IMG/VR virus record: IMGVR_UViG_3300044705_000115
Span: 66,044 to 130,043 of that record
Reading direction: 5' to 3' (one strand)
Source of the DNA: a virus
DNA: 64,000 bases
A model generated the notes under the pieces. That model did not search any database. It was not told where the DNA came from and saw nothing but the letters and a program-made list of their open reading frames with translations. Position numbers and translations under genes: made by a program. Positions within the stretch are counted from its first letter, which is position 1. Each line of letters begins with the position of its first letter. Below, in pieces: positions 3,158-64,000 of this stretch.

Positions 3158-4924
3158 CTACTCGCCGAAACCGGCCTGGTACTCCTCGTCGCGGAAGCCC
3201 GGGTCGTAGCGCTGGGCGTCGTACTCGTCGAGTTCTGCCCGCTCGAACTCCAGCATCTCGTCGAGCGGCTGGAAGACATCTCGCGTGTCCGCATCGACCC
3301 CCTGCCGGTAGTGCCAGAGCTCGGTCGCAACCACGTCGTAGACCTCGGCGTGGGTGTAGTCGTTGGGGCCGGTCTTGCGGTAGTGGACTTTGGTGCGGCC
3401 GAACTCGTCAGTTTCCGCCTCGCGCACCTCGCCCTGCAACTCGTCCTTGTAGCCCTCCGGCAGCGCTTCGGGATCGCATTCGCGGCCCCCAGGAAGCTCG
3501 TTGAGCTGGCGCCGGATCAGGTCGTAGGTCGCGTCGATGGCCTCGACCCTGCGCACCGTCGCCAAGATCAGCTCCTCATCGACAGCGAAGACCTGTTTCT
3601 GGTTCTGCGCGTAGGCGACCAGATAGACCCGGCCAGGGAAGCGCTCGGCCAGCCGGCGGCTCATCCGCTCCTCGGGCGCGTGGTCGATCGCGCACATGTT
3701 CACGTTGAAGCGCCGCATCAGCGACTCAAGCTCGTTGAAGGTATCGACGCGCCCGATCCACAGCGCCCGCTTGCGCTGGTCCTCGTAGTGCTCACTGATC
3801 CGCACGTTCATCGCCCGCGCCGAAGCGACATCGACGCCCATCGTCACGAGGTTGGCCGTCTGCCGGCCACCGTCCTTCGGCTCGAGCGAGTAGGCACGGC
3901 AGGCGGCGGCGATGGCGGCATCGGAAAGGCGCCCCTCCTCGTCGGCGTAGGCGAGGCCCAGGTCCTTGTTGAAGTGCGTCTTCTTGTCGGTCGGGTTCGT
4001 CTTCTTCGAGGCTTTGATGATTTCCCGAACGTTGGTGTTGGGTTTGACTAGGCGCGGGATGTGGTAGCCGCGAATGTCGATGTCGGGATGCTCGGCGACC
4101 CATTCGCCCTGCCGAACATCGAGCGGCTTGCGGCACTTTGAGCAGATGACCGTGGCCGTCTCTAGATCGACGTTGTCGGGGAACTCGATGTGCTGCCAGT
4201 TGCGGCAGGCCGCGCACTTGACCATCCAGCGCCGCATGTCCGATTCCTCGTAGAGCCGGTCGATCCCCCAGTTCGGGGTCGAGGGGACGCCGACGCGCCG
4301 GATCAAGGCGATGTCAGAGCCGGAGATGCGGCGCTCGGCGTCGGGGATGTTCTCCTGCGTGAGGGTGTCGTACTCGTCCAGCGCGAGGACATCTGCATCG
4401 ACCGAGTCCAGCGCGGTTTTGGTCTCCGAGCCGCGGAAGTAGACCATGCCCAGCCCGATCTGCCGCAGCCCCTTGTTCTGGACATGCGCTGGCGGCACGC
4501 GGCCACGCAGGTACTCAGACCCTAGGATCGCCTGCTTGACGCGAGCGTCAGCGAAGTCGTACATCTGGGCGAGTTTCGGGAAGACGTAGAGCGCGACTAG
4601 GGCGCCGATGTCGGCGTGGTACATGACCCAGCGGGTCAGGTAGGCGGAGATGCCGAGCTGGGTCGCCTTTTTGATCACCATCTCCTTCTCGTAGGCGCCC
4701 TCGGCGTACAGCTCGCGCTGGAAGGGGAAGCGGTCGAAGTCGAGCGTCCCCGATTTCGGCTCAGGTACGCGCAGCGCCCAGTCGAGGAACGGCGTGCGCT
4801 GGTTCTTGCGGTCAGCCTGCTGGGTTTCCCAAAGCTCCAGCACCGCCTTCAGCGGGTCGATGTGGGGCGCCGTGGTCGCGCCCGTCGCCTGGGCACCGAA
4901 GCGCGTGGTCAGGGGGCCAGCCAT
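3158..4924 (-). CDS. terL: Terminase large subunit (lambda GpA family)
   Basis: GpA-type Walker A KKATQLGIS, Walker B LALDEYD, coupling motif STP, CAAC..CSKC zinc ribbon, nuclease motif MGVDV. Confidence 0.92.
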   Translation of the reverse strand: MAGPLTTRFGAQATGATTAPHIDPLKAVLELWETQQADRKNQRTPFLDWALRVPEPKSGTLDFDRFPFQRELYAEGAYEKEMVIKKATQLGISAYLTRWVMYHADIGALVALYVFPKLAQMYDFADARVKQAILGSEYLRGRVPPAHVQNKGLRQIGLGMVYFRGSETKTALDSVDADVLALDEYDTLTQENIPDAERRISGSDIALIRRVGVPSTPNWGIDRLYEESDMRRWMVKCAACRNWQHIEFPDNVDLETATVICSKCRKPLDVRQGEWVAEHPDIDIRGYHIPRLVKPNTNVREIIKASKKTNPTDKKTHFNKDLGLAYADEEGRLSDAAIAAACRAYSLEPKDGGRQTANLVTMGVDVASARAMNVRISEHYEDQRKRALWIGRVDTFNELESLMRRFNVNMCAIDHAPEERMSRRLAERFPGRVYLVAYAQNQKQVFAVDEELILATVRRVEAIDATYDLIRRQLNELPGGRECDPEALPEGYKDELQGEVREAETDEFGRTKVHYRKTGPNDYTHAEVYDVVATELWHYRQGVDADTRDVFQPLDEMLEFERAELDEYDAQRYDPGFRDEEYQAGFGE

Positions 4925-7448: not shown

Positions 7449-7476
7449 TTGCGGTCTCCTTGGTCGTCGCCAAAGA

Positions 7477-8946: not shown

Positions 8947-8968
8947 CTTCTCGTCCTTTCGTTGTGGC

Positions 8969-17197: not shown

Positions 17198-17219
17198 GTC
17201 GGCCTCCTTGGTCGGGTTA

Positions 17220-17276
17220 CTGCTGCACAGACTACACGATCCTGCTAACTTTGTTGGCGCTTCACCCCGACCAAGG
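17220..17276 (+). promoter_or_regulatory. Sigma70-type promoter plus start-associated motif for the collagen-like gene
   Basis: CTGCAC-N17-TAACTT with TG extension; CTGCTGCAC-N14-TGCTAACTTTGTTGGCG is identical to the Ku promoter at 61648-61687. Confidence 0.7.
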
Positions 17277-23681: not shown

Positions 23682-23754
23682 GCGCCTCTACCTACCTGCT
23701 GCGGGTAGACGAGGAAGGACATGATCGCGGGATTTGCGCCGGGAACCTGTGCGT

Positions 23755-24126
23755 CTACTCCTCCTCCATGAACTTCGCCTTGTGGACCCGTTCGACGCCG
23801 ATGATCCCCGCGCCTTTGGCCTTGATGTCCTTGAAGTTCGGCAGGCCGACCTCGAAGACGCCGCTGGCGATGACGGTGCCGTCGGCGTCGGCGACGCTGA
23901 CCGTGAGCCGGTTGCCAGCGTGGAGGTCCTTACGCACCGGCAGGTCGCCAGCGAGCTTGACCGAGCCGCTGATGAAGGCATCGCGCTCGCTCAGCTCGGG
24001 CCGGTGGCGAACCTCAAGGGAGAGCTGGGTCGGCACTCCGCTGTCGGGGCCGCGCCAGCGCCGGCGGCGCTTCTCGGCCAGGTCCTCGATTGAGTCGGCG
24101 CCGGGGCGGTCGGAGTCATCGGGCAT
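23755..24126 (-). CDS. Hypothetical protein
   Basis: Start ATG 24126 (MPDDSDRPG) after GAGGAGGAAG. Confidence 0.6.
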   Translation of the reverse strand: MPDDSDRPGADSIEDLAEKRRRRWRGPDSGVPTQLSLEVRHRPELSERDAFISGSVKLAGDLPVRKDLHAGNRLTVSVADADGTVIASGVFEVGLPNFKDIKAKGAGIIGVERVHKAKFMEEE

Positions 24127-24601
24127 GTTCTTCCTCCTCTGTGTGTTCTCTTTCGAGCGCGTAGAGGAGATCGTGGATCTCCGCCACGAGCAGGGCATTC
24201 GGTGCTTTTGCGGTCACGACCGCAATTCCGAGACGACGCATCCCGGAGTGATGGTCGCCGTGACAGGTGGTGCAGAGAGGCATCCGCCATCGCGGGTCCC
24301 AGGCGACCGCGAAGACCTCCCATTCCGAGTAGCCGCGGTCTCGCAGGATTCGTTCGATGACCTGTCTCCGCAGCACATGGTGGGCGTGCAGTTTTACCGC
24401 TGGCGCAGCAAGTCCGCAAGAGGCGCATTGTCGTCGCCGCGCATCTCCCAGGAACAGCCCCATCAGCGACCGCTCGATCTTCGTCAGCTTCGGTTTCGTC
24501 TTCCGCCGGAGCGGCGTCTTGCGCTTCAAGGGAGCGCCCCTTTTGAGCGGCGTTTTGCGCTGGAGGGGTTTCCCTCGCCGGAGGGGGCCGGAGCGCTTCA
24601 C
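24116..24601 (-). CDS. HNH endonuclease-like protein
   Basis: Basic PL(R/K)R repeats at the N-terminus; CASC..LHAHH..LCTTCHGDHH. Confidence 0.75.
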   Translation of the reverse strand: MKRSGPLRRGKPLQRKTPLKRGAPLKRKTPLRRKTKPKLTKIERSLMGLFLGDARRRQCASCGLAAPAVKLHAHHVLRRQVIERILRDRGYSEWEVFAVAWDPRWRMPLCTTCHGDHHSGMRRLGIAVVTAKAPNALLVAEIHDLLYALEREHTEEEEHAR

Positions 24602-26783: not shown

Positions 26784-28208
26784 TCAATCGAGCAGGCTTG
26801 CTTGGCCCGCTGCTTTCGCCATTTCCTCGCGCTCCGCCGAGCGAAGCGCGTCCTCCGTCGAGAGTTCGTAGCCCGCGTAGGGCGCCCAGCGCTCAATCCG
26901 GGCCTCGGCGATCCGCACGTACTCCTCGGATTTCTCGAAGCCGATGAAGTCGAAGCTGTCCAGTACTGCAGCGATACCGGTCGAGCCGCTGCCCGTGAAG
27001 GGATCAAGCAGGAGGCCGCCTGGCGGCGTGACCAGGCGGCAGAGCCACCGCATCAGCTCGACCGGCTTCACCGTCGGGTGGGAGTTGCGGGCGTAGCGGT
27101 CGGTGCCGTCGGCCTGGAAGGTTCCGGGCGACTCGTCGCCCGATGACCAGCGCAGCATCTTCTTCTCGAAGTCAGCGAGGCCAAGGTCGCGCTCGAGGCG
27201 ACCGACCTTCGGGCAGAAGAAGAAACGGCTCGCTCCGCCGACATCGCCCATCAGCCGGGGGCCGCCGTTGCCGCCGCTGGTCACCGAGTCATAGACGGAG
27301 TTCGAGCCGCGCTTGTCTGGGTAGCCGCCGCCGCTGCGCTCACCGCTCTGGACATCCAGTTGCTCTGCCGCCCCTTCGTCGAGGATCAGGTTCGCTGGCC
27401 AGCGCCCCTGCGCCTCGTAGTTCTTGCGCTCGACCATCGAGAAGTCGCCGTAGACCTGATTGCCGCCCGGCTCGGTGCCGAAGTCTGCGTGGCGGTTCTT
27501 GTCCTTCGTCTCCCGTTCGTCGCCAGCGGAGGCGAAGGGGATGCGCGAGCGGTCGATGTTGATCGCGCCCGTGCCGTGCGCGGACACGTTGTCGATGACC
27601 GTTCCCTGCAGCGGCTTGCGGGCGACCACGATTGGCTCGTGCGCGGGCTTCAGCGCCGTCCCGCGCCCCTCGCCCGCGTCTTTGCTCTTGGGGAAGCCCT
27701 GCGCGTAGAGCCACATGATCGTGTCCCTGATCTCGAACCCGGCGTCCTCAATCCCCGCTGCGAGGCGGTGGTAGGTGCGCGAGCCGCCGAAGGCGAGTAG
27801 GTGGCCACCTGGCCTCAGAACCCGCAGCGACTCTTCGGCCCAGCGCCTATGCCATTCCTGCATAGTCCGGGCACGAGCTACGGCGCGGTCGCCCTCGTTG
27901 AAAGCCTCGCCCCGAACGCGCCAGTCAGGAGCCTCGCACTGACAGCGTTTCTTCCCACGTCGACGACCGCCGCAGGCTGCACAGGTCGGGTTGGCGGTCT
28001 CGCCGCCGAAGCTCGGCCACTCGGTTGGACGCTCGCCAAGGCCGGGCTTCGACATCCCGCCTCCGTCGCGCCATGCGTCGATCCTGTCCCAGTCCTTGCC
28101 CATGAACTCCAGCCCATAGGGAGGGTCAGTGACCACGGCATCGACGGAATCCTCGGCTAGATCGGCCATCCCCTCGACGCAGTCGCCGTTGACGATGCGC
28201 CAACTCAT
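26784..28208 (-). CDS. DNA N6-adenine/N4-cytosine methyltransferase (beta class)
   Basis: VTDPPY, HPTVKP, LDPFTGSGST. Confidence 0.92.
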   Translation of the reverse strand: MSWRIVNGDCVEGMADLAEDSVDAVVTDPPYGLEFMGKDWDRIDAWRDGGGMSKPGLGERPTEWPSFGGETANPTCAACGGRRRGKKRCQCEAPDWRVRGEAFNEGDRAVARARTMQEWHRRWAEESLRVLRPGGHLLAFGGSRTYHRLAAGIEDAGFEIRDTIMWLYAQGFPKSKDAGEGRGTALKPAHEPIVVARKPLQGTVIDNVSAHGTGAINIDRSRIPFASAGDERETKDKNRHADFGTEPGGNQVYGDFSMVERKNYEAQGRWPANLILDEGAAEQLDVQSGERSGGGYPDKRGSNSVYDSVTSGGNGGPRLMGDVGGASRFFFCPKVGRLERDLGLADFEKKMLRWSSGDESPGTFQADGTDRYARNSHPTVKPVELMRWLCRLVTPPGGLLLDPFTGSGSTGIAAVLDSFDFIGFEKSEEYVRIAEARIERWAPYAGYELSTEDALRSAEREEMAKAAGQASLLD

Positions 28209-28441: not shown

Positions 28442-28520
28442 GGCGATCCTCCTTGGTCGGTAGGCGGCGAACCTACTCGGAGGACCGGACGGCGCGGGGC
28501 TGCGATCCCGCTATCTGCGG

Positions 28521-29834
28521 CTAGAAAGGCGGGTCGTCATCGTCGGTCGCAGCGGGTTTCTCGATCCGCTTAACTGACTCCTCGAGGGCGTTCATCAGCG
28601 AGGCATCCTCGGGCGTCTCCTCGACGTTTTCGGCGGTGTGCTGCGTGAACTTGGTGAAGGGCTTCTCGACGTAGAGTTCGTCGAGATCCACATTCGGACC
28701 GGCGAGCGCCAGCGCCGCCTCCAGCTCCTCCCGCGTCGGCCGCGACTTCCGCTTCGCTGGCTTGTAGCCCCAGACCCGGTTCGGATCCTTGGCGTGCTTG
28801 ATCGGAATCGGCCCCCGCACATCGCCCCATGCCTTCATCGCGTTCTGGCGCTGCTTCAGAGCCGCTTCCGCCACCAGGGCCTCAGCGGCGTACCTTTCGG
28901 CGGTCTCGGCGTCAGTGATGGCGCCGCGCACGCGAGCGTCGGGGAAGATCGGGCACGACGACGGGCGCGGGCAGAAGGAGCAGTGCTTGCCCGGCGAGGG
29001 AACCCACAGCTCCAGCCGCTCACGCTCGCCCGTCTCCTCATCGACCTTCGGCGGCCAGTTGCCATGCTCGACCGCCCGGTCGAAGCGCTCGACCAAGGCG
29101 GCGATTTCCTCGCGGATGTCGGGCAGGTCGTCGCGGGTGATGGACGCCTGGCGCGTGTTGCCGGTGCCGACCGTGCTGCCGGGGTCATGGCGGACGTAGT
29201 GCTCGCGCAGCGTCACCTCGCGCACCGACGGGTAGCGTTCGAGGACGAGGAAGCCGTAGAAGCGCTGCTGGAAGTAGCCCTGCTCCGACAGCTCCTTCGG
29301 CGCCGGCAGCGCCCAGGTGTCTTTCCAGTCGAGGACGACTGCGTGGTCGGGTTCGGGCAGGAAGAGGGCGTCGATCTGGCCGGTCATCCGCCGCGGCACC
29401 ATGATCAGGCCCTCAGGCGAGTCCCACTCGTACTCGACCACCGCCTCCAGCCGCTCCTCGACGCTCGCCAGCTTGTCGATCTCGAAGGCGTTGTCCTTGG
29501 CGAACTTGATCACGACCCAGCGCAGGTCCTTGATCTGGGAGAAGGGGATGTTGATCTGGTCGCGCGGCTCGACATCGTGCTGCCGCAGGCACTCCCGCAG
29601 AAGCTCCAGCGCGACATCGGGCGGGATCGAGTTTTCGCCCGCCTGCTCCATCGCTTCGAGGGCCTTGGCGGCGAAGCGGTGGAAGAGGATGCCGCGGCCC
29701 TGGGGGTGGCCGTTCCAATCCTGCTCGTGGTCGATGTAGAACTTCGACGAGAGGGCGCAGTCGTCGAACTTGCTCAGCAACGACTGGCGGACAGTCGGGA
29801 ACTTCTCTACAGCAGTGGGGTAGGGCAGGTTCAC
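28521..29834 (-). CDS. PD-(D/E)XK (RecB/Cas4-like) exonuclease
   Basis: GTG 29834 after CCGACCGAGGAG; GQIDA..LDWKD..Q..FY; Cys pattern C..HCSFC..C. Confidence 0.8.
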   Translation of the reverse strand: MNLPYPTAVEKFPTVRQSLLSKFDDCALSSKFYIDHEQDWNGHPQGRGILFHRFAAKALEAMEQAGENSIPPDVALELLRECLRQHDVEPRDQINIPFSQIKDLRWVVIKFAKDNAFEIDKLASVEERLEAVVEYEWDSPEGLIMVPRRMTGQIDALFLPEPDHAVVLDWKDTWALPAPKELSEQGYFQQRFYGFLVLERYPSVREVTLREHYVRHDPGSTVGTGNTRQASITRDDLPDIREEIAALVERFDRAVEHGNWPPKVDEETGERERLELWVPSPGKHCSFCPRPSSCPIFPDARVRGAITDAETAERYAAEALVAEAALKQRQNAMKAWGDVRGPIPIKHAKDPNRVWGYKPAKRKSRPTREELEAALALAGPNVDLDELYVEKPFTKFTQHTAENVEETPEDASLMNALEESVKRIEKPAATDDDDPPF

Positions 29835-29897
29835 GGCGGCTCCTCGGTCGGTTGAATGCCATCCAAGGCGCTGCACCGGACGTACTGCTGCGGCAAG

Positions 29898-29958: not shown

Positions 29959-31059
29959 CTACGACGCAGCGGCAGCTACGGTGGCCCCCTCACCCTCCTC
30001 GCCGACGATCTCGACCGCGTCGCCGTCGATCGGCTCGGGAGGAGCCTCGCCGCCGAGCTCGGCGATGAACGACGCCAGCTCATTGACCAGCGCCTCGGGA
30101 TCGGCGGCGAGGGCCTGCAGCTTCGCCGGGCGATAAGAGCCGGGCTTGAGCTGGTTGGCCATCTCGGCCAGCGTGGCGATGTAGCTCGCCCTCGGCTCGG
30201 GGCCGAAGTCGATGTTCGAGAAGGCCAGCTCGCGCGTCTTGCCGGTCTCGACATCGGTGAGCATCTTCCGCTCCTTTTCGATCTCGTCCTCGCCGACCAC
30301 GCCGCTGATTGAGAAGGCTTTGCGCAGCGCGTAGGTCTCCGCGCACTTCAAGATCATCGCGCTCGGCGTTTTCTGCCACGGCCCCTCGCGGTCCTGTTTG
30401 TACTCGCCCATCGGCGCGAAGAAGTAGGTCTCCCCATGTCCCTCGCGCACCACCCGCGCCCAGGCGCCGATGATCGGGCCACGGCCCACCGGCTCCCCGT
30501 TGGGGCCGGACTTGCTCGGATCGCTCTGCGTCGAGTAGCTGTGCTTGATCGACCGCTCGCCGTTCTCGAAGACATTCGAGAACTCGTCGTTGGCGTGGAC
30601 GACATCGCCGTCCATCCGCACGAAGCTCGGCTCCTTGTGGGCATGGGCGAGCAGCCCGTCGCGCGAGACGATGATCTGCACGCGGCCCTTCATCTTCGCT
30701 GCGTAAATCTGCCTGGCGAAGGGGTCGAGTTCGTAGCGAGCGGCGACCTCCAAGAACATCACCAGCTCGGCGTTGTTGCAGTCGGCGGCGACCGTGTTCC
30801 TGATCGCAACAACCTGCTGCTGATCGAAGCCCAGGCGGGCTGGCACCGTGATGGCGGAGCCACCAACCTGCTCGAGCGCCTGCCGCTCCTTCGGCGCCTC
30901 GGCCTCGGTGACGCTGCCATCCTGGGCGATTTCGATGTAGGTGTCGTCCTTCGTGCGGGCGAGGATGTTGTCGCCCTTGCCGCCGGTTACGCGACCGGCC
31001 TCATGCTCCGCGAGAGCCTTCTTCTGCTCCGCGTTGGCCTCGATTACATCGTCGGCCAT
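29959..31059 (-). CDS. bet: Single-strand annealing recombinase (Bet/RecT family)
   Basis: FLEVAARYELDPFARQIY, VSRDG and W..PSAMILKCAETYALRKAF motifs. Confidence 0.88.
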   Translation of the reverse strand: MADDVIEANAEQKKALAEHEAGRVTGGKGDNILARTKDDTYIEIAQDGSVTEAEAPKERQALEQVGGSAITVPARLGFDQQQVVAIRNTVAADCNNAELVMFLEVAARYELDPFARQIYAAKMKGRVQIIVSRDGLLAHAHKEPSFVRMDGDVVHANDEFSNVFENGERSIKHSYSTQSDPSKSGPNGEPVGRGPIIGAWARVVREGHGETYFFAPMGEYKQDREGPWQKTPSAMILKCAETYALRKAFSISGVVGEDEIEKERKMLTDVETGKTRELAFSNIDFGPEPRASYIATLAEMANQLKPGSYRPAKLQALAADPEALVNELASFIAELGGEAPPEPIDGDAVEIVGEEGEGATVAAAAS

Positions 31060-31116
31060 CGGTCCTCCTTGGTCGGGGGTAAGGAGGCACCCACACTACG
31101 CTGCGGCCCAGACGAA

Positions 31117-55144: not shown

Positions 55145-58100
55145 CTAGACCGTTCCAGCCGTCTTCAGTTCAGACGGGCTGAGGTTTGCGGCCTTGATGA
55201 CAGCAGCGATGACGGACGGCTTCTCGTTCTCGCGGTCGAAGACGATGCCCTGGGTCTCAAGCTTGTCGAGGGCGGCGCCGATAGAGGTCGCAGTCCAGGG
55301 ATCGCCGAGCTGGTCGGCGGCGTCCAGAAGGTTGACCTTCTCCTTCGTGTTCTCGGCAGGACTCGGCGTATCGCTCGATGTAGGAGACACATCTTCGGCC
55401 TGCAGCGCCTTGACTTTGCCAGCAGCCTCGTCCGGCTCCCAGAACTCACCAACCGTCTGCCCGTTCTGGGAGACAACGTAGCTTGAGCCGATGCCGTTCT
55501 TCTTCTCCGAGCCGTAGCCCGTATGCGGTTCCTTCTTGACCGTCACGTAGTTGGGGAAGTTGGCGGCATCGCCGTTCTTCATGCCCTTCAGGTGCGTCGT
55601 TGCGGGGTCGAGTTCGGAGGCAATGTCCTCGGGCGGCGGCGGGATCGGCGTCCCTTTCGGTTCAGGCTTTCCCTGCTTCACGACCACCGGGCCTTTGTCG
55701 GCTGGCTCGGGCTTCTTGTTCGGGTCGCCACCGACCCGTTTGATGCGGAATTTCGCCGCCCGCACCTGGGCGGCAGCCTTGGCCTTCGTCTGCTTGTCGG
55801 CATCGGCCGGGAGGTTGTCGAAGTCGGCTTTCTTCTTCTCGTAGGCGGCCCAGGCGGAGGCGATCTTCTCCTCCTTCGACTTGCCGCTGACAGCCTTTTT
55901 CGGCGCTTTCAGCTCAGCCGTTTTCTTCGCCTGCGAATCGCTGCGGCTGGACAGCTCGGCGGTGATGGCCTTGATCGCCTCCGTGTCATCGGGGTGCGAC
56001 TTCATTTCCACCGCGAGTTTCAGCAGCTTCTCGTCGGACATCGCCTTGAAGTTGCGGAGGTTCCCGGCCTTGGAGCGGGCGGGTGAGCTGGGCGCCATGC
56101 CAGCGTTCTCCAGCGAGCCTTTCAGCGCCGAGTAGAGGGCGTCATCGTTGGTGGCGGCGGGAGCTGGCGTCGGTGCCGAAGAGGATGGAGAGCCGTTGGG
56201 GTTGCTCGGACCGATGAACGGCGGTGCGAACTCCCTGTGGAAGACCTTCGCTTTGCCGCCATCGACGGGCTTGGCGACGATGAAGTCGCCGCTGGTCGGC
56301 TTGTGCCATACGTATGCCTGGTCGTGCTTGCCGACGTAGAAGGTGTCGCCGGCCGACATCTCTTTGAGCGACTTTTCCCCTGCGTTCGGCGCGTAGCCCT
56401 CGGGCGGCGCGTACTGGACGGCGGGCTGCGGCATCAGCCGCTCGCCCGTGACCTGTGCGTAGTCGTTGGAGGCCGCTTCCTTGGCAGCGCTCGAGCGGGA
56501 GTTGTCGAAGGCCAGTTTCGCCCGCCGCTTCTTCTCGGCGATGGCAGTCAGGAAGACCGAGCGGTCACGGCCCGACTTCGGCAGACCGTTCGCATCAACG
56601 GAGTCGGAGATGAGGCTGTCGAGCTCAGCATTGCTCGCGCCGTGGAAGTCGATCAGTGCCCGCTGCGGAGATTCATCAGCGGCGCCCGCATCGCCCGTGC
56701 GAAGGAAGCGCTCGCCGCGTTCGGTGGCGAGGTCGTAGTTGCGGTTCGCGGCGCCGTAGCCGCTCTTGTCGGCCCAGGCGCGATCCCCGCTCATGTCATC
56801 GAGGTGATCCTGAACGGCACCGTCATCGCCGCGGGCGATCGCGTCGTTGATGTGGTCGAGGTGGTTCTGAGAGACGACCTCTGCGGTCATCGCGGCCTTG
56901 TTCGGGTCGCCAGGCGGGAGCGGCGAGCGGCGGGCGGGCGGCTCCGGGAAATGCCGCGCCTTGGAGCCAGCCGGAGCGGCGGTGCGCACGGACGCGAGTG
57001 CGCCCTTCTCGGGGCCGTCGTTGATGCGGGCGATGCCCCGACCCCCGACGCTGTGCTCGACCGTCGCGGAAACTTTGCCGCTGCCGCTGCGGTGGGGCAG
57101 GTTGATCTTCTCGCCGGGCTTGAGAATCTGGCCCCGCCCTTTCGGTGCGAAGGTGCCATCGGCCAGCCGGTAGAAGTCGCGGACTCCGCCGAAGAGACCC
57201 CGCAGAGATGCCTCCACGAGGGCGGCCTGCCGCAGCGACCGCTCGGCCGCGAGGGCGACCACGTAGGCGCCAGTGTCGCCCGCGCCTTTCGCCGCCATGC
57301 GCCGCAGAACCGCCTCGTTCAGTTCGCGCTCCGCCTTGGTGCTGTCCTTCTTCGGCTTCTCCTTCGCCGACATCCGGTCGAGCAGACGCCCGGTCTTGGG
57401 CCCGACGACGCCATCGGCCTTCAGGCCGTAGCGCCGCTGCACCGCCTTGACCTTGCGCTCGGTTTCCGGTCCGAAGCGGCCATCGACCTCGGCGCCGATG
57501 GTCTTCTGCAGGTGCTTGACGCTCGCGTCCGGCTCCTCGTCGGCGACGCCGGTTCCCTTCGTCAGCACGCCGCTGGCGAGGCTCGGGGTGTCTTCGTCCT
57601 CCTCCCCCTCGGCATCCCCTAGTTCCTCGTTGGCGCCCTCGTCCTCTTTCGGCGGGGCTTCGCCGTCCTCGGTCTTCCCCTTCGACTTCGCCTCCGGCTT
57701 TGCCTTGGCTGGCGCCGCAGCTTTCCTGTTCTCGCCCTCGTCGCCCTCCGGCGCCGGCGGCGCCCCTGCCTCCTCAGCGTCTTCTTCATCGACCCCGCTG
57801 GCCTTCTGACGCGCTTTCGAGACCTCTTCGGGATCGGTGCCGCGCAGGGCAACCTTCGTGGCGCTGCCGACCTCGCCGTCGTCTTTCAGCCCGTGGTCGC
57901 GCTGGAACTCCGCGACGGCGCTCTGGGTCTTCTCTCCGTAGCGCCCGTCGTTGGCGCCCGCGTCGTAGCCAAGCTCGGCGAGACGGTTCTGCAGGAAGCC
58001 AGTCGCCTCGTCGGGCTGACCGTTCATCCCAGCCCCGTACTTGCGGTGGAAGTCGTCCTGAGCGACCGCCTCAAGGATGGACTCGCGCATCTTTTCTTCG

Positions 58101-59647
58101 CGCTTGCGTTCGCGCTCGATCCGCGCCCGTTCTTCTTCGCGCTGCTTTTCGGTGCGCTTCGACGCCTGGCGCTGTTCGCGCACTTCCTGATGCTGAGCCT
58201 GGCGCTGGTGGCGCTTCTTCTGCTGCCCGCCTGCCTGGTGCTGGGTGAGCCAGTCCCAGTCGGACTGCGTGAAGGCGCCGGGCGCCGGCGGCGTCTTGTC
58301 GCCGCGCAGGGCAGCGAGCGTCTGCGTGCCGACGATCCCGTCCACCTCAAGGCCGTGGTTGCGCTGGAATTCTTCGACCCGCGCTTTGGTCTTTTCGTCG
58401 TAGCTGCCACTGGTGGCGATACCGAGTTTGCGCTGGATCAGGTCGGCGACTTTCGTCGGCAGCGAGGAGCTTTCGCCGAAGACCGAGCCAGCGCCACCGT
58501 TCGCCGAACCGCTCGTGGAGGAGCTGGCGGAGTTCGATGACTTCGAGGAGGAGGAGGAGGAGGAGGAGGCTTTCTTCGCTTCTTTCCGGGCTTTGTTGGC
58601 CTTGTTCCGGGCCTTTTCGGCGGCGTCTTCGGCGGCCATGTGGCCAGCGGTGAACCGTGCCCGCGTCTTGCGGAGGGCCGAGCGCTGGTGCGCCAGCAGC
58701 GGCCCGCCGACAGCGGAGGTGCCGTTGATGGCGCCAGCGGTCTGAGAGCCGACTACCCCATCGACACTCAGGCCCTTCTGCTTCTGGAAGGCTTCGACCT
58801 TCTTCTTCGTTTCCAGCCCGAAGCGGCCATCGGGTTTGGCTCCGACCGCACGCTGCACGCCCTTGACCTCCGGCCCGGAGGATCCCGAGCGGATGAACTG
58901 GCCACCGGTCGGCTGGCCCCGCCCGGCTCGAGGATGTTTGCCCTCGTCAAACGGAAGTGGTGCCCCGCTGCGCCCCTTCGCCTGCGGGCCGCGCCGGCCC
59001 GGCGCTGGCGGCCCGGCCTTTTCCGGGCGAACCAGCGGCGGCACGCCCAGCGCCTCGAGGACAACTCGGAGGTCGGCGATCTCCTGGCCGAGCATCGACT
59101 GCGCCCGCGCCAGCTCGCGCGAGTCGGCGTTGCCGCGGCCAAGCTGCATCCGTGCGCCACCCTCGACCAGCGCCAGCGCGGAGGCGACGCGGGCGGCGCG
59201 GTTCTTGGTGCCACGACCCTTGAGGCCCATCGCCATGCCCTCGGCGAGGCTCAGGCGATGGCGGAAGTCACCGACCAGCGACGCGACCTCATCGGCACCG
59301 AGAACCAGGCTGTCGTCTTCGCTGGTGGCCTCGCTGAGTTTCGACTTGCCCCGTTTCGCCATCCATTCGGCGACAGCCTTCTGCGCCTTGGCGACGGTGT
59401 CCGGCTTCAGTTTCGAGCCGTTGTGGTTGACACCGGTTGACCACTTCTTGACGGTGTTGACGGCAATGGCGATCGCCGTCCCGATGTCTTTGCCTTTCTC
59501 GTAGTGGAGATGTTTGGCGATCCGTTCGATGTAGTTCGGCAGGCCGCCAGCCCGATCCACCCAGTTCTGCTTGCCCGGCACCCTCTCCAGCTTCGGGTAG
59601 ACGGTGGAGCTGACCTCCTGCAGCGAGTTCTGCTCCGCAGCGGGCAT
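55145..59647 (-). CDS. 1500-aa multidomain protein with four PG_binding_1 domains
   Basis: Four DG.(F/Y)G..T..V..(F/V)Q..GL..DG.VG..T units; FDEGKHPR..GGQF motif; long low-complexity linkers. Confidence 0.85.
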   Translation of the reverse strand: MPAAEQNSLQEVSSTVYPKLERVPGKQNWVDRAGGLPNYIERIAKHLHYEKGKDIGTAIAIAVNTVKKWSTGVNHNGSKLKPDTVAKAQKAVAEWMAKRGKSKLSEATSEDDSLVLGADEVASLVGDFRHRLSLAEGMAMGLKGRGTKNRAARVASALALVEGGARMQLGRGNADSRELARAQSMLGQEIADLRVVLEALGVPPLVRPEKAGPPAPGRRGPQAKGRSGAPLPFDEGKHPRAGRGQPTGGQFIRSGSSGPEVKGVQRAVGAKPDGRFGLETKKKVEAFQKQKGLSVDGVVGSQTAGAINGTSAVGGPLLAHQRSALRKTRARFTAGHMAAEDAAEKARNKANKARKEAKKASSSSSSSSKSSNSASSSTSGSANGGAGSVFGESSSLPTKVADLIQRKLGIATSGSYDEKTKARVEEFQRNHGLEVDGIVGTQTLAALRGDKTPPAPGAFTQSDWDWLTQHQAGGQQKKRHQRQAQHQEVREQRQASKRTEKQREEERARIERERKREEKMRESILEAVAQDDFHRKYGAGMNGQPDEATGFLQNRLAELGYDAGANDGRYGEKTQSAVAEFQRDHGLKDDGEVGSATKVALRGTDPEEVSKARQKASGVDEEDAEEAGAPPAPEGDEGENRKAAAPAKAKPEAKSKGKTEDGEAPPKEDEGANEELGDAEGEEDEDTPSLASGVLTKGTGVADEEPDASVKHLQKTIGAEVDGRFGPETERKVKAVQRRYGLKADGVVGPKTGRLLDRMSAKEKPKKDSTKAERELNEAVLRRMAAKGAGDTGAYVVALAAERSLRQAALVEASLRGLFGGVRDFYRLADGTFAPKGRGQILKPGEKINLPHRSGSGKVSATVEHSVGGRGIARINDGPEKGALASVRTAAPAGSKARHFPEPPARRSPLPPGDPNKAAMTAEVVSQNHLDHINDAIARGDDGAVQDHLDDMSGDRAWADKSGYGAANRNYDLATERGERFLRTGDAGAADESPQRALIDFHGASNAELDSLISDSVDANGLPKSGRDRSVFLTAIAEKKRRAKLAFDNSRSSAAKEAASNDYAQVTGERLMPQPAVQYAPPEGYAPNAGEKSLKEMSAGDTFYVGKHDQAYVWHKPTSGDFIVAKPVDGGKAKVFHREFAPPFIGPSNPNGSPSSSAPTPAPAATNDDALYSALKGSLENAGMAPSSPARSKAGNLRNFKAMSDEKLLKLAVEMKSHPDDTEAIKAITAELSSRSDSQAKKTAELKAPKKAVSGKSKEEKIASAWAAYEKKKADFDNLPADADKQTKAKAAAQVRAAKFRIKRVGGDPNKKPEPADKGPVVVKQGKPEPKGTPIPPPPEDIASELDPATTHLKGMKNGDAANFPNYVTVKKEPHTGYGSEKKNGIGSSYVVSQNGQTVGEFWEPDEAAGKVKALQAEDVSPTSSDTPSPAENTKEKVNLLDAADQLGDPWTATSIGAALDKLETQGIVFDRENEKPSVIAAVIKAANLSPSELKTAGTV

Positions 59648-59827: not shown

Positions 59828-60316
59828 TCACTCCTCGGACAGGATCGGCTGGATGAAACGCCGGTCGTAGCCATCCTCCCAAGGGAAGACCCCGACCGTG
59901 TCGGGCCAGATGATCTGCAGCGCTGGGAAGTACTCGTAGGCGTTCCAGCGCAGGGCGCCCTTCATCATCGAGTCCCTGTTGGCATCGCTGACCTCGCGCA
60001 AGCAGCCATCGTAGTCACCCTTGACCCCTACGAATAGCTTCTCGTAATGCCGTGCCTCCAGCTTCTCCCCTTTCTCCGGGAACCGCGCGATCAGGTCGGC
60101 GATGACGGCGTGGGAGTTCTCCCCGCTCATGCCGGTGATGATCAGCTCGGGATGATCGAAGGTGCGCCACAGGCCGACCGTGTAGGCGAAGGGATCAACG
60201 GGCTGATTCTCCGTCGGCATCACCGCCAGCACCGTCCAGCCGACCCGGCCGATGTCGCGGGCGATCCTCGCCTGGATCGGGTTGTGCGGTGCTGGCGGTG
60301 GCTTCGACGGAGGCAT
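59828..60316 (-). CDS. DUF4262-like protein
   Basis: FAYTVGLW..HPELIITG..LQIIWPD..G.FPWE. Confidence 0.8.
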   Translation of the reverse strand: MPPSKPPPAPHNPIQARIARDIGRVGWTVLAVMPTENQPVDPFAYTVGLWRTFDHPELIITGMSGENSHAVIADLIARFPEKGEKLEARHYEKLFVGVKGDYDGCLREVSDANRDSMMKGALRWNAYEYFPALQIIWPDTVGVFPWEDGYDRRFIQPILSEE

Positions 60317-60639
60317 CAGGCGGGGATTGCCTCGTAGCGGCGGCCGGTCTTCTTGACCTTGCCTTCCTTGCGCAGGTCGCTGAGGACGCGGTAGAGGTAG
60401 CTCGGTTTCATGCCCTGCTCTTTGGCGAGCTCCATGCCCGTGAGTCCGGGATTCTCCTCGATCACCCTCAGCGTCTTGTCGCTGCGACTGCCGCCTTTGC
60501 GCGGGCGGCGGCCCCGTTGCTTCGGGGCCACGGTTTGCGGGGCCGAAGATGCGACCTCCGCCTTGGCGGTTTCGAGGGCATCTAGGTCTGCTCGCGCCTT
60601 CGAGATCAAGGCGTCGAAACCGTCGATGAGGCTATCCAT
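60316..60639 (-). CDS. Coiled-coil plus winged-HTH DNA-binding protein
   Basis: ATG 60639 after GAAAGGA; IEENPGLTGMELAKEQGMKPSYLYRVL..GKVKK.G. Confidence 0.72.
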   Translation of the reverse strand: MDSLIDGFDALISKARADLDALETAKAEVASSAPQTVAPKQRGRRPRKGGSRSDKTLRVIEENPGLTGMELAKEQGMKPSYLYRVLSDLRKEGKVKKTGRRYEAIPA

Positions 60640-60659
60640 CGTTGTTCCTTTCGTCGTTT

Positions 60660-61583
60660 TCAGACCAGGCATTCGGCCGGGTCTTTGTCGGTACGCCAGC
60701 GCTTCCATTGCGGGTGGCGGTAGCCGTCTTTCATATGCCCCATATGGGCGACCTCGATCACGGTGCCGAGGTACTTGTCGGGGTCTTTGGTGACCTGCAA
60801 GCGGGTCTTCATGTCCATCCCCGAGCAGCGGCCGACCTCAACGATCTTGCCGTCGCGGTAGCCGCCGAAGATGATCGACCCGACCAACCCCTTCCAGCCG
60901 TGGTCGCCGGGTTTGTAGCCGATGACCACGAAGTCTTCGGTTTCCTGCGGCTTCAGCTTGTACTGGCCCGCTCCGCGCCCGCCGCTCTGGTAGCGGCTGC
61001 CCAGCGATTTCACGACGGCGCCCTCGAAGCCCTGCGCGAGCAGTTGGGCCAGCGCCTCGTCTGAGGGCGGCGTCTGCGGGGTGAGGATCACCCTCTCCCA
61101 CTCGCGCAGGGCGAAGATCCCCTCCAGCAACTCACGCCGCTTGCGGAACGGCAGAGAGCGGGCGTCGATGTTGGCGTGAGCGATCAGGTCGAAGGCGACG
61201 AACGTGATCGTTGATTCGAGCAGAACCGCCTTGGTTTGGTTGGCTCCCAAGCAACTCTGCACACTTCCCCAGTCGTGGACGACGAAGTCGCCATCGACGC
61301 TGAAGGCGACCGCCTCGCCGTCGATCCAAGTCCCTGCGGGTAGGCGGGCAAACTCGGCCTCGATCTTCGGCAGTTTGCCGTCGTGGACGGTGCCGGTATG
61401 CGAGAACACATGCACGCCGTCATCGGCCACATGCACAAGGACGCGCTGGCCGTCGTACTTTGGCTCAAGGACGAACTCGGCGGGGTCGAACCCGCTGGCG
61501 CTCAAGCCCTTCTTGGCCTCTGCCTTGTGGACGAGGTTGATCGGTGACGTAGGTGCTGGTGGAAATGCGGTTGCGGTTGCCAC
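60660..61583 (-). CDS. lig: ATP-dependent DNA ligase
   Basis: Motif I EPKYDG, III IDGE, IIIa FVAFDL, IV EGAVVK, V YKLK, OB domain RHP..R.DK. Start reassigned to GTG 61583 after AAGGGAG. Confidence 0.92.
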   Translation of the reverse strand: MATATAFPPAPTSPINLVHKAEAKKGLSASGFDPAEFVLEPKYDGQRVLVHVADDGVHVFSHTGTVHDGKLPKIEAEFARLPAGTWIDGEAVAFSVDGDFVVHDWGSVQSCLGANQTKAVLLESTITFVAFDLIAHANIDARSLPFRKRRELLEGIFALREWERVILTPQTPPSDEALAQLLAQGFEGAVVKSLGSRYQSGGRGAGQYKLKPQETEDFVVIGYKPGDHGWKGLVGSIIFGGYRDGKIVEVGRCSGMDMKTRLQVTKDPDKYLGTVIEVAHMGHMKDGYRHPQWKRWRTDKDPAECLV

Positions 61584-61588
61584 GAACT

Positions 61589-61703
61589 CTCCCTTGGTCG
61601 GTGCCAAGAAAGTTAGCATCTATTCGGCGCCAGCGCTGCGAATGATCCTGCTGCACGGCGCCTCTGGAAGTGCTAACTTTGTTGGCGTAACCGACCAAGG
61701 AGG
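61589..61703. promoter_or_regulatory. Mirrored divergent promoters/RBS for the ligase and Ku
   Basis: TGCTAACTTT(G/C)TTGGC..CCGACCAAGG occurs on + (61671-61700) and on - (61618-61592). Confidence 0.78.
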
Positions 61704-61709
61704 AACCCC

Positions 61710-62540
61710 ATGCGCGGCAACAACAACGACCTCGTCATCACCACCGTGCACGACGAGGCGACCGACACGGACGTCCCGCTCCTGCACTTCCCCGTCCAAA
61801 TCTGCAAAGCGACCGGCTCGGTAGACGCGAAGTACGACCTCGCCGCCCCTTCGGGCGCGGAATACGAGACGAAATACCTCGACCCCGCGACCGGCGAGTT
61901 CTTCGAGTCGGCCGAGCGCAAACACGGCGTTCGCGCGGGCGATGCCTTCAAGGAGATCCCAGCCGATTCAATCAAGGCCATCGACGAGAAGACCAAGCTG
62001 GTTGACATGCGGGTCGAAACCGCGATGCGCTACGAGGACATCGAGTTCGAGCGGGCGACCGGCATGTACTACCTGCAAGTTCCGGCCAAATCGGGGGCGC
62101 ACAAGGTCTACCGGCTGATCTACCTCGCCCTGCTCCCCCAGAAGGGCAAGACGAAGGCGCAGAAACAGCGCCTCGCCCTGCGGGTCAAGTTCACGAGCCG
62201 CAGCCGCCAGAAGGTCGGTGTCGTCTACGCCGACCCGCAGAAGGAATGCCTCGTACTGAACACCCTCGCCTTCGCCGCCGAAGTGCGCCAGCCCGACGAG
62301 GCGGTGCTAGCCCACAAAGCCGCTCAGGTCGAGGAGGCGCAGGTCGGCAAAGCGCGTCAGGTCATCGAGTCGCTGATCGACCTGAACACCGAGGAGCCGG
62401 AAGACGACGCGCTCGCCCTCAAACGCGACCTGATTGAGCAGGCAGCGGCGGGCGAGGCAATCGAGGCGCCGGTCGTGCCGGTCACCGAGACCGTCGAGAC
62501 CGACAACCTCGCGGCAGTGCTGGACGCGAGCCTCGCCTAG
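61710..62540 (+). CDS. ku: Ku protein (prokaryotic NHEJ end-binding protein)
   Basis: PVQICKAT, Y.DP.TG..KHG, YYL.P, YRLIYLAL, KFTSRSRQK, LVLNTLAFAAEVR, NLAAVLDASL. Confidence 0.85.
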   Translation: MRGNNNDLVITTVHDEATDTDVPLLHFPVQICKATGSVDAKYDLAAPSGAEYETKYLDPATGEFFESAERKHGVRAGDAFKEIPADSIKAIDEKTKLVDMRVETAMRYEDIEFERATGMYYLQVPAKSGAHKVYRLIYLALLPQKGKTKAQKQRLALRVKFTSRSRQKVGVVYADPQKECLVLNTLAFAAEVRQPDEAVLAHKAAQVEEAQVGKARQVIESLIDLNTEEPEDDALALKRDLIEQAAAGEAIEAPVVPVTETVETDNLAAVLDASLA

Positions 62541-62839
62541 CGCTTTTTCCGTTTGGATCGCGGCGGCGGCTTGATCGTCGTCGCCGCGATCTCCTTGCCA
62601 TCGAGCATCTTGAAGTTCCGCTCGAGCGATCCCCGGCTCGACTCGATGTTCGGCGCCGCCAGCGCGTGTTTGACCGCCTGCAGCATCCCGGTTATCCGAT
62701 CCTGCATATCGCCCCTGAGCATCGCCCAGAGCCGTTCGGCAATCGCCGCCGCCTCCGTCTCGTCTTCGCAGGCGACGATGCGGCGGACGATCTCCCGCTT
62801 GGACTCGACCGAGAGGCGTGGGCGAGGGAAGGCGCTCAT
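62537..62839 (-). CDS. Hypothetical protein
   Basis: 100 aa helical; ATGA-coupled to the upstream gene. Confidence 0.55.
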   Translation of the reverse strand: MSAFPRPRLSVESKREIVRRIVACEDETEAAAIAERLWAMLRGDMQDRITGMLQAVKHALAAPNIESSRGSLERNFKMLDGKEIAATTIKPPPRSKRKKR

Positions 62840-63648
62840 AGCGGCATCCGCTCGACCGACTCTTCCTCCGAGCCGATCTGCAGCAGTTCATCCATGCGAG
62901 CTTCGGCCGACTGCCGGTCGAGGTCTTCGTGGAGGTACTTCATGGCGTAGAAGGCCGCGACGTAGGGCTTGAACCAGTCCGTGTGCTCCCACGGCCACGG
63001 GCGATCCATCACGACCTTCCCCTGGATAAGCAGATGGCAGCGCTGGCAGAGCGCGACGAGGTTCCACCAGCGCAGGTCCGGCTTCCACTCGTTCAGGTGG
63101 TGGACGGTGAGGATGCGCCAGAGCGCCTGCGTCGGGTTGCCGCAGTTGACGAAGAGCGACGCCGGGGCGCCGCGGGTGTCCTTGATCCGCTCGGCCTCCT
63201 CCCAGCCGTCGCTGTCGAGCGGGTCGAGGACGCGGATCGGGCCGCCGTGGGAGCAGAGGTCGTCGCAGTCCGACCAGTTCTTGCGGGGCGCTGCGTTCAG
63301 CTCGGCGTTGTTCAGCGTCGAGATGCCAGCGCCAACATCCTCAAGGGCGAAGTCAAGCTCCTCCTGGTTGACGCCGAGCTCCGCTGCGAGTCCCTTCTGC
63401 CGCGCTCGAGGCCCATCGAACTCGCCCGAGACGCCGACGATGTAGGGGTGCCGACAGCGGATGCAGCGGTGCCGGGCCTGGGCGCGGACGATGTGCTTGA
63501 TGCCGGGGTTCTCGCGGTGAAGCTCGACGCCTTCGAGTTCGAGCGCCCCGATCAGGTCGTCGAGTTCGCCAGCGATGTTCTTGTGCCAGAGCAGCGGATA
63601 GCCATCCGCTCCGCAGGCCTCCGGCGGGTAGATGCGGAAGGGGTTCAT
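62836..63648 (-). CDS. HNH endonuclease with a long insertion
   Basis: HRCIRC..~115 aa..LTVHHL..NLVALCQRCHL. Confidence 0.75.
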   Translation of the reverse strand: MNPFRIYPPEACGADGYPLLWHKNIAGELDDLIGALELEGVELHRENPGIKHIVRAQARHRCIRCRHPYIVGVSGEFDGPRARQKGLAAELGVNQEELDFALEDVGAGISTLNNAELNAAPRKNWSDCDDLCSHGGPIRVLDPLDSDGWEEAERIKDTRGAPASLFVNCGNPTQALWRILTVHHLNEWKPDLRWWNLVALCQRCHLLIQGKVVMDRPWPWEHTDWFKPYVAAFYAMKYLHEDLDRQSAEARMDELLQIGSEEESVERMPL

Positions 63649-64000
63649 CAGAAGGGGATGTCGTCTTCGCCGCCCGTGACCTGGGAGCCCTCGTAGTCCG
63701 GCCCAGGCGGATCGACGCCCTCGTCACGATGGGCGCCACCGACGCTTTCTTTGCCGCCGAGAAACTGAACGGTGTTGGCGATGATGTCCACCGCCTGACG
63801 CTTGTTGCCGTCTTTGGTCTCCCACTCGTGCCAGTCCAGCCGTCCTTCGATGGCGACGGCGCGGCCCTTGGCGAGGTAGTTGGCGCAGTTCTCGCCCTGC
63901 GCCCCCCAGACCGTCACGTCGAAGTAGTTCGGCTTGTCGATCCATTCGCCCGACTGGCCGTCTTTGCGGCGGCTGTTGACCGCCACCCGCAGCTTGCAGA
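63648..64000 (-). CDS. ssb: Single-stranded DNA-binding protein (5' truncated)
   Basis: YFDVTVWG..YLAKG..IEGRL..W; acidic DDIPF tail. Confidence 0.95.
   Translation of the reverse strand, partial: CKLRVAVNSRRKDGQSGEWIDKPNYFDVTVWGAQGENCANYLAKGRAVAIEGRLDWHEWETKDGNKRQAVDIIANTVQFLGGKESVGGAHRDEGVDPPGPDYEGSQVTGGEDDIPF

Follow-up and report, generated by a model that had tools for sequence, protein, structure and literature searches.

We analysed a 64,000-nucleotide stretch of viral DNA (the window), which is the last 64 kb of the 130,043-bp IMG/VR virus record IMGVR_UViG_3300044705_000115, rated 100% complete. Near its right-hand end, a gene for a Ku protein on the plus strand and a gene for a small ATP-dependent DNA ligase on the minus strand lie head to head across positions 61584/61620-61709 (Table 1). 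The best reading of this locus, which we hold with moderate confidence, is that the two genes make up a phage-borne module for end joining or end sealing, in which the ligase is of the ligase-domain-only (LIG-only) kind and Ku would be its partner.

The ligase matches Pfam DNA_ligase_A_M (E 1.6e-21; 77.4 bits, cut-off 26.2) and phrog_114 (E 2.3e-52), and its best NCBIfam model is TIGR02779 NHEJ_ligase_lig, a model for ligases of non-homologous end joining (NHEJ), with 114.5 bits. The Pfam models for the OB domain scored under their cut-offs (DNA_ligase_OB_2, 21.1 against 28; DNA_ligase_A_C, 18.3 against 27.5). An AlphaFold2 (AF2) model with a predicted local distance difference test (pLDDT) score of 91.3 consists of two domains, a nucleotidyltransferase (NTase) domain and a beta-rich OB domain, and its fold matches include archaeal ligases, the ligase domain of Mycobacterium tuberculosis LigD (1vs0_B, E 6.9e-20) and human LIG1, with whole-length matches reaching E 3e-21. 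Invariant in an alignment of 24 sequences are EPKYDGQR (with K42), F131-D132, E187-G188...K192 and K209/K211, together with R289, P291, R297 and D299 of motif VI in the OB domain, where K300 is nearly so. On our own reading these columns represent motifs I (EPKxDGxR), III (FD), IV (EGxxxK), V (KxK) and VI (R..P.....R.D). The upstream ATG at 61619 lies just 5' of a repeated 16-mer, so that the extended open reading frame (ORF) spans this motif. The true start is most likely the GTG at 61583, because motif, Shine-Dalgarno sequence and GTG follow one another in that order, the N-termini of homologues fall at the equivalent residue and the start in the related locus L005 also lies after the motif.

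The Ku protein scored 37.5 bits against Pfam PF02735 (cut-off 25), its residues 23-212 covering profile positions 3-188 of 190, and 37.7 bits when the whole genome was rescanned. It also matched phrog_4873, 'Ku-like DNA end binding' (E 1.1e-11). The family of phage Mu Gam was not matched: the Pfam search (E <= 0.01) returned Ku alone, and the PHROGs search phrog_4873 alone. A profile of the Ku family found M. tuberculosis Ku in the PDB (9i91/8v53) at E of about 4e-21, and Foldseek with the AF2 model (pLDDT 87.4) gave apo M. tuberculosis Ku as the best match (9ig8_A; template modelling (TM) score 0.75/0.77, E 5e-14), followed by 9i91, 8v53, Bacillus subtilis Ku (9vnq) and then human Ku70/80. 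Its family has 36 members in a large protein collection, all of them metagenomic; relatives were found in metagenome contigs at no fewer than two loci (at least 2), and a pattern scan of 185,579 species genomes yielded none that was confirmed.

The C-terminus deserves separate treatment, since in bacteria this part of Ku serves to recruit the ligase. Part of it, the minimal region, is conserved, and the other part, the extended region, varies (PMC9638933). According to the accessible text of Sowa et al. (PMC13717202), the conserved region binds the LigD polymerase domain in B. subtilis as well as in M. tuberculosis, and in M. tuberculosis it also contacts the ligase domain and is required for the stimulation of ligation. 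The window Ku ends ...TDNLAAVLDASLA (last residues LDASLA), with DNLAAVLDASLA in a modelled terminal helix (267-275) and the chain stopping one residue after the motif. This motif aligns with that of the Ku of viral locus L026, and in the form D-L-x-A-A-L-E-A-S-L it is conserved across a Ku profile neighbourhood of 2,470 members. A lysine-rich extended tail beyond it is typical of many bacterial Ku proteins, yet variable. Taking a basic tail as at least four lysines or arginines after the motif, we found one in 33 of 106 wider relatives and in none of 32 close relatives, and the window Ku has none.

A preliminary description of this DNA had named a Ku gene without a basic tail and a minimal ligase gene, divergently arranged. 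The profile searches uphold both identities, the coordinates bear out the head-to-head layout and the missing tail holds across the close relatives. The ligase is minimal also with regard to what surrounds it: no match to the LigD primase-polymerase (PF21686, PF09250; AEP/Prim-Pol) or to the LigD phosphoesterase domain (PF13298, LigD_N) occurs anywhere in the 130-kb genome, which encodes neither a second Ku nor a second ATP-dependent ligase and no NAD-dependent ligase.

Linkage of the two genes was the next line of evidence, and one that the preliminary description had singled out as a check. In related loci the ligase gene lies divergently upstream of Ku wherever upstream sequence is present (5/5: L003-L006 and L011; L012 is cut inside Ku), and in L003 and L004 the divergent pair is kept despite 2-3 small genes or 1.3 kb in between. 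We then scanned viral loci of the ligase family (n=79) with a locally built Ku hidden Markov model (HMM). Across ARRANGEMENTS, Ku was found within 10 kb of the ligase at 10 of the 79, in every case as the adjacent gene, and the remaining 69 showed no Ku within that distance. Eight of the ten pairs are divergent (ligase identity to the window ligase 44-61%) and two are co-directional, namely those of L026 (43%) and L049 (30%), in which Ku comes first and its stop overlaps the ligase start by 4 nt. Adjacency thus recurs, and it includes a translationally coupled arrangement in two other viral lineages. In a FastTree tree of 150 ligase cores the window ligase falls in a well-supported viral clade of 13 rows that includes L026, while the Ku of L026 is only 23% identical to the window Ku over 200 aa. 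One ligase clade has therefore been partnered with very different Ku proteins in two gene orders. The Ku of L049 is of bacterial type and passes TIGR02772 with 206 bits. Directly 5' of the L049 operon lies a gene (7197-8855) for a 552-aa ParB-like protein (ParB_N, HTH_ParB); the record of mycobacteriophage Corndog has a ParB-like nuclease domain protein, gp90, annotated three genes from its Ku, gp87.

Among 80 cellular relatives of the ligase, 40 have Ku within 6 kb. The best of them, at 33% identity, are encoded on chromosomes of Solirubrobacterales metagenome-assembled genomes (L093-L095 and L099), with Ku directly upstream. In L093 (3311-8767), Ku and a 381-aa ligase stand in a row between a methyltransferase-like gene, next to Ku, and a tyrosine recombinase-like ORF (both flanks read by eye), and this pair looks like part of an integrated mobile element. 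The L093 layout and the top ligase matches together give a weak hint that the host of the phage could be a Solirubrobacterales-like actinobacterium.

The sequence between the two genes carries a mirrored, promoter-like signal. The preliminary description had seen here mirror-image promoters implying matched expression. The repeat itself is real: TGCTAACTTT(G/C)TTGGC occurs three times in the window against 0.24 expected, and none of 100 shuffles reached three. It is not private to the pair, since the 130-kb genome holds seven copies of the 16-mer at up to two mismatches, each followed within 0-9 nt by CCGACCAAGG, and 24 copies of CCGACCAAGG (eight in the window, against 0.19 expected). Behind the remaining five 16-mers lie genes unrelated to DNA repair: three encode small proteins without a family match, one a 515-aa protein that weakly matches oxidoreductases and one a collagen-repeat protein. 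Of the 24 copies of CCGACCAAGG, on our reading 18 lie 4-14 nt 5' of a start codon, usually extended as CCGACCAAGGAGG; window sites of CCGACCAAGG or CCGACCAAGGAGG are 17206-17215 (-), 17267-17276 (+), 28451-28460 (-), 31067-31076 (-), 61592-61601 (-) and 61691-61700 (+). A TAnnnT hexamer ends 8-16 nt upstream of 22 of the 24, compared with 0.8% of 20,000 random positions, and by their hexamers the copies divide into a TGnTAACTT class of 7 and a TAGGCT-like class of about 15, in which GCAGC often stands immediately upstream. These regularities suggest that promoter and leader form a stereotyped cassette of two classes and that transcription begins just ahead of the leader. In idea it is comparable to the start-associated sequences of some mycobacteriophages. 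An RNA hairpin formed by the TTGG...CCAA of the leader was considered and rejected by eye (a 4-bp stem, a variable spacing of 0-9 nt and an uncompensated G/C change in the 16-mer).

In four of the seven TAACTT copies, CTGCTGCAC (in one copy GTGCTGCAC) lies exactly 14 nt upstream. The reading of this element as a -35 sequence is weak, because by eye it is degenerate at the ligase-side copy and its spacing in L005 is 12 nt. A scan of 60200-63000 for E. coli-type sigma-70 promoters (TTGACA/TATAAT consensus) found no promoter-like site at the thresholds of the tool used, and terminator-like sites in that interval numbered three, no more than the 2.2 expected by chance. Relatives repeat the mirrored design with other sequences: in L027 one and the same 19-mer stands on both sides, in L021 a different 22-mer and in L003 TGCTAACATCATGGAC, and in L014 and L016 the leader is mirrored. 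All three plus-strand genes behind motif copies (Ku, the collagen-repeat gene at 17297-18424 and the gene for the 515-aa protein at genome positions 22982-24529) belong to the TGnTAACTT class. What stands of matched expression is therefore a promoter-like type common to Ku, ligase and five other units, which is compatible with similar timing. A private two-gene regulon finds no support, because the pair accounts for two of seven copies of one promoter-like type and two of 24 copies of a genome-wide leader, and the ligase copy has a degenerate upstream element.

Table 1. Features at the Ku-ligase locus and elsewhere in the window (window coordinates)
Feature	Position	Strand	Evidence and remarks
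Ku, 276 aa	61710..62540	+	Ku core, C-terminal helices, terminal motif ...DNLAAVLDASLA
ATP-dependent DNA ligase, 307 aa from GTG 61583	60660..61583	-	Nucleotidyltransferase and OB domains only; open frame extends to ATG 61619
Ku leader CCGACCAAGG	61691..61703	+	Runs into Shine-Dalgarno AAGGAGG, 6 nt before Ku ATG
Promoter-like 16-mer TGCTAACTTTGTTGGC, 5' of Ku	61671..61686	+	TGn and TAACTT -10-like hexamer; promoter role inferred
-35-like element CTGCTGCAC	61648..61656	+	Ends 14 nt 5' of Ku-side 16-mer; tentative, read by eye
Promoter-like 16-mer TGCTAACTTTCTTGGC, 5' of ligase	61603..61618	-	Mirror copy; inverted repeat I4, 16 nt, 94% complementary
Ligase leader CCGACCAAGG + GAG	61589..61601	-	Shine-Dalgarno AAGGGAG, 5 nt before GTG 61583-61581
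Third window copy of 16-mer + CCGACCAAGG	17243..17276	+	5' of collagen-repeat protein 17297-18424 (signal-peptide-like N-terminus by eye)
Winged-helix protein, 130 aa	60316..60708	-	Second gene of ligase-led leftward unit; Pfam HTH_24 22.2 bits, cut-off 21.9; kept after ligase in L005
DUF4262 protein, 162 aa	59828..60316	-	Third gene of leftward unit; Pfam DUF4262 E 1.7e-30; kept in L005
100-aa protein, convergent with Ku	62537..62839	-	No Pfam or PHROG match; stop codons share CTAG 62537-62540
GC-rich inverted repeat I14	62556..62591	.	13-nt arms, 10-nt spacer; 16 nt past Ku stop, within 3' end of convergent gene
HNH endonuclease-domain protein, 270 aa	62836..63648	-	Pfam HNH 22.9 bits, cut-off 21.4; phrog_1571
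Single-strand DNA-binding protein (SSB)	63648..64000	-	Across contig junction; phrog_44 E 1.8e-27; N-terminus and CCGACCAAGGAGG leader at genome position 232
RecT-family single-strand annealing protein	29959..31059	-	Pfam RecT E 1.3e-35; phrog_2780; CCGACCAAGGAGG leader 31067-31076
PD-(D/E)XK exonuclease, RecT partner	28521..29876	-	Pfam PDDEXK_1 E 1.1e-13; phrog_69
Large terminase, lambda gpA type	3158..4924	-	Pfam GpA_ATPase E 4.5e-21, GpA_nuclease E 6.4e-06; phrog_675 E 1.3e-94

The genome that carries this locus has 65.9% G+C and a 127-bp terminal overlap, probably an artefact that the assembler produced from a circular or concatemeric template, and the stretch was found only in two soil-metagenome runs, either of which is a possible source of the contig. 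It belongs to a phage with a contractile tail (a myovirus), encoding a tail sheath, a baseplate wedge protein, a portal, a head protease/major head protein and a large terminase. A simple gene call based on G+C at third codon positions (GC3) places nearly all genes on the minus strand, with Ku among the very few on the plus strand. Terminases of the lambda gpA type are associated with cohesive (cos) ends, which need closure after injection, and the ATPase and nuclease domains of the window terminase suggest cohesive ends here as well. The replication genes seen are those for an O-like initiator, a DnaC-like loader, an SNF2-type helicase and SSB. No DNA polymerase of family A, B or C was found in the 130 kb; the phage appears to borrow the host replisome, and a purely replicative role for the ligase becomes less compelling, though not impossible, for want of a phage polymerase. 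The coexisting Bet/Exo recombination of the preliminary description turned out to be a RecT-family protein with a PD-(D/E)XK nuclease, a pair that is not lambda Bet/Exo in the strict sense. Three DNA methyltransferase-like genes are present (8969-10000, 24598-26310 and 26784-28208, all on the minus strand), two of which adjoin near the RecT/exonuclease pair; they may serve self-protection against restriction. Outside the window, at genome positions 5704-10308 (-; L007), a 1534-aa protein matches phage RNA-ligase families over its N-terminal ~170 residues (phrog_2659, E 1.4e-20). Lysogenic conversion, with Ku and ligase expressed from a prophage, was set aside because no tyrosine or serine recombinase was found in the genome.

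On the far side of Ku, SSB is the convergent gene just after it in L003, L004 and L012; in the window phage the genes for the HNH-domain and 100-aa proteins intervene. The GC-rich inverted repeat beyond the Ku stop may be a terminator, perhaps serving both directions. A 1500-aa protein (55145-59647, -) with several peptidoglycan-binding-type repeats and endolysin-family matches contains LRNFKAMSDEKLLKL. Stretches that resemble it by eye occur in a small ORF just 5' of Ku in L026 (8615-9028; LRNFARMSDAKL) and in a C-terminal extension of the Ku-linked ligase of L093 (6037-7182; IRNYRAMGPEKLL), and may represent a shared small domain travelling with Ku-ligase modules.

The case for a two-gene end-joining module builds on the identity of the genes, the folds and catalytic motifs of their products, a linkage that is both conserved and recurrent, and a genome in which other ligases, polymerases and LigD accessory domains are missing. 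From these we infer dimeric ring binding by Ku, its contact with the ligase, double-strand end joining, the timing of expression and the substrate, as follows. Both genes would be transcribed outward from the shared 90-bp control region, each from a TGnTAACTT cassette followed by the leader CCGACCAAGG with its Shine-Dalgarno sequence. Ku would shield DNA ends from host exonucleases and keep two ends together, and its C-terminal helix (...LAAVLDASLA), as the putative counterpart of the ligase-binding 'minimal C-terminus' of bacteria, would recruit the phage ligase, which would then seal the strands. Since the ligase has adenylation and OB domains only, and neither a polymerase nor a phosphoesterase domain, clean joining of compatible or cohesive ends would be expected rather than remodelling of damaged ends. 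The likeliest substrates would be the injected genome ends, given a cos-type terminase like lambda gpA, and breaks made by host nucleases. When two Ku chains were co-folded with the ligase the score was 0.01, to which we attach no weight either way.

Such a module would probably resemble bacterial Ku-LigD in its working while standing outside the LigD family, if that family is taken to be defined by three domains. The NHEJ systems of M. tuberculosis, B. subtilis and Pseudomonas aeruginosa, in which a Ku homodimer acts with LigD, share with the phage pair the Ku core fold, the minimal C-terminal motif, adjacent genes and an NHEJ ligase domain as the best model of the ligase. The phage ligase differs in having no polymerase or phosphoesterase domain, neither of which is encoded elsewhere in the phage, and the phage system differs further in its tail-less Ku, its divergent genes in place of one operon, its viral carrier and its sub-equivalog scores. 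Closer in size are the stand-alone Ku-linked ligases of bacteria and archaea (LigC-type, LIG-only), which are likewise ligases of ~300 aa next to Ku; archaea have a split NHEJ gene set. From these the window ligase differs in that its closest cellular relatives are 33% identical and its clade in the tree is viral.

Several findings weigh against this interpretation. The ligase and Ku scores lie under the NCBIfam equivalog cut-offs (227.75 for TIGR02779, as against the 114.5 bits given above; 63.3 bits against a cut-off of 150 for TIGR02772, Ku_bact), and sequence alone thus does not make the two proteins orthologues of the characterised bacterial pair. HMM alignment carries the phage Ku profile to the 'DVSDLL' stretch of M. 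tuberculosis Ku, where it stops six positions short, and the match of the phage terminal motif to the residues beyond is a reading by eye. This residue-level match is not direct, since only weak, irrelevant matches came back when the final 80 Ku residues were searched against the PDB. Linkage within the close lineage may be inherited synteny, the ligase tree is approximate with long branches, and a promoter type common to five other units lends little weight to specific co-regulation. Moreover, the clade of the window ligase also holds L024 and L025, whose records are complete and contain no Ku, L018, in whose record about 57 kb separate Ku and ligase, L022, whose record is 55% complete and shows no Ku, and L020, which is too short to tell, so the ligase is not an obligate partner of Ku. 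The two-gene end-joining system proposed in the preliminary description is thus backed, as a pairing, by the linkage in close relatives and in viral loci and by the NHEJ-type best model, and it is qualified by the two complete relatives that keep the ligase without Ku.

These relatives also favour the explanation that competes best, which we regard as unlikely though deserving a serious hearing: that the two proteins have separate jobs, Ku capping linear ends and rolling-circle tails in the manner of Mu Gam, as a stand-in for lambda Gam that aids the RecT/exonuclease pair, and the ligase being a general nick sealer. Mu Gam is a Ku-related phage protein that binds DNA ends, protects linear DNA and is reported to promote end joining with E. 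coli ligase (PMC1378119; Bhattacharyya 2018, as cited in PMC8136500, likewise has it acting with host ligase). The window protein differs from it in matching Pfam Ku and in having a candidate ligase partner that is phage-encoded and ATP-dependent. Separate jobs would fit the presence of RecT and a PD-(D/E)XK nuclease with no recognisable RecBCD inhibitor among the proteins scanned, as well as the promoter type shared with five unrelated units. They would fit, too, how common the ligase is without Ku, both in the viral loci (69/79) and in GenBank, where 205 phage records match it at 25-30% identity. Ligases of the T4, T7 and Chlorella-virus type (PHROG 114) resemble it in catalytic core and size class; the window phage differs in having no DNA polymerase, and its ligase best fits the NHEJ ligase model. 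Against separate jobs stand the strict adjacency in 10 of 10 viral loci with both genes within 10 kb, the two operons with a 4-nt overlap, one of them with a very different Ku, and the Ku linkage of the nearest cellular ligases. Furthermore, the window Ku retains the C-terminal motif that serves ligase recruitment in bacteria, which a pure end-capper would not need.

It is improbable, in our estimate, that Ku instead works with host LigD and that the phage ligase is unrelated or a back-up. The precedent is provided by phage-encoded Ku-domain proteins of Corndog (gp87; cluster O) and Omega (gp206; cluster J), which are thought to act on injected genome ends in phages that rely on host LigD; cluster J phages have Ku and 4-nt 3' overhangs, and an RNA ligase is the only ligase mentioned for them in the accessible text of these reports (PMC3706429, PMC12848934). 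The binding of the Ku C-terminal region to the LigD polymerase domain (PMC13717202) would speak for such a role, as the phage ligase has no such domain, although the same region contacts the LigD ligase domain in M. tuberculosis according to the same source. The recurrent adjacency to, and translational coupling with, a LIG-only ligase would be hard to explain if the phage ligase were irrelevant. The likeness to the precedent is also slight: between the window Ku and Corndog gp87 the similarity is marginal (25% over 81 aa, E 2e-4), and the window Ku ends at the minimal motif, whereas the cluster J Ku carries an Lsr2-like C-terminus. Very improbable is a mere by-product of layout, in which the site marks the boundary between a leftward replication/recombination operon (ending SSB-HNH-gp100) and a ligase-to-structural unit, with Ku as an inverted insert; the minus-strand bias, the promoter-like 16-mer common to all three plus-strand motif-borne genes and the genome-wide nature of the mirrored cassette would agree with it, but it leaves the Ku-ligase adjacency in other lineages with other layouts, and in bacterial elements, unexplained.

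Among 50,697 GenBank phage records, tblastn with the window Ku gave no match at E <= 1e-5, and tblastn with its distant relative P0178 gave none. Corndog gp87 matched 87 records, namely 86 Mycobacterium phages and one unverified faecal contig, and the bacterial-type Ku of L049 matched 88, namely 87 Mycobacterium phages and one 'Bacteriophage sp.'. Of two unverified faecal contigs labelled 'Bacteriophage sp.', one carries Ku and the other the best ligase match in GenBank; the partner gene is absent from the 4-5.5 kb of each, the Ku-bearing contig having no ligase within its 5.5 kb. In their accessible text, one survey lists 11 viral Ku sequences, all from actinophages (PMC11936186), and another 11 RefSeq phages with Ku (PMC8136500), the supplementary list of which could bear on Ku-ligase pairing. 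Searches of the full-text literature, with subscription journals (e.g. Pitcher et al. 2006) and supplementary tables lying outside them, turned up no account of a phage-encoded pair of Ku and DNA ligase.

In conclusion, we favour the end-joining module, and we put forward a bolder version of it as a tentative proposal that may well prove wrong: that uncultivated soil phages and at least one integrated Solirubrobacterales element carry the smallest natural self-sufficient end-joining kit, consisting of a tail-less Ku and a LIG-only ligase of ~300 aa that has neither polymerase nor nuclease domain, assembled more than once and used early in infection without host LigD. Just as tentatively, the kit would exist in divergent and overlapping-operon forms, with Ku proteins only 23% identical, and would serve to close a genome with cohesive ends or to mend cuts inflicted by restriction or CRISPR nucleases. 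If true, this would be the first complete NHEJ system encoded by a phage, and would supply a portable tool of two genes. Descriptions of phage Ku to date cast it as hijacking host LigD, in Omega and Corndog, or host LigA, in the case of Mu Gam; a phage that brings its own dedicated ligase could circularise its genome and repair breaks independently of host repair, which would widen the host range of the strategy and let the phage respond directly when restriction enzymes or CRISPR nucleases cut both strands. The pair would also be a test case for which parts of bacterial NHEJ are dispensable, namely the polymerase and phosphoesterase domains on the ligase side and the basic tail on the Ku side, with the C-terminal helix of Ku as a handle on ligase recruitment. 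Finally, the promoter-leader cassette, in its 24 copies, could help to define transcription signals in poorly known high-GC soil bacteria.

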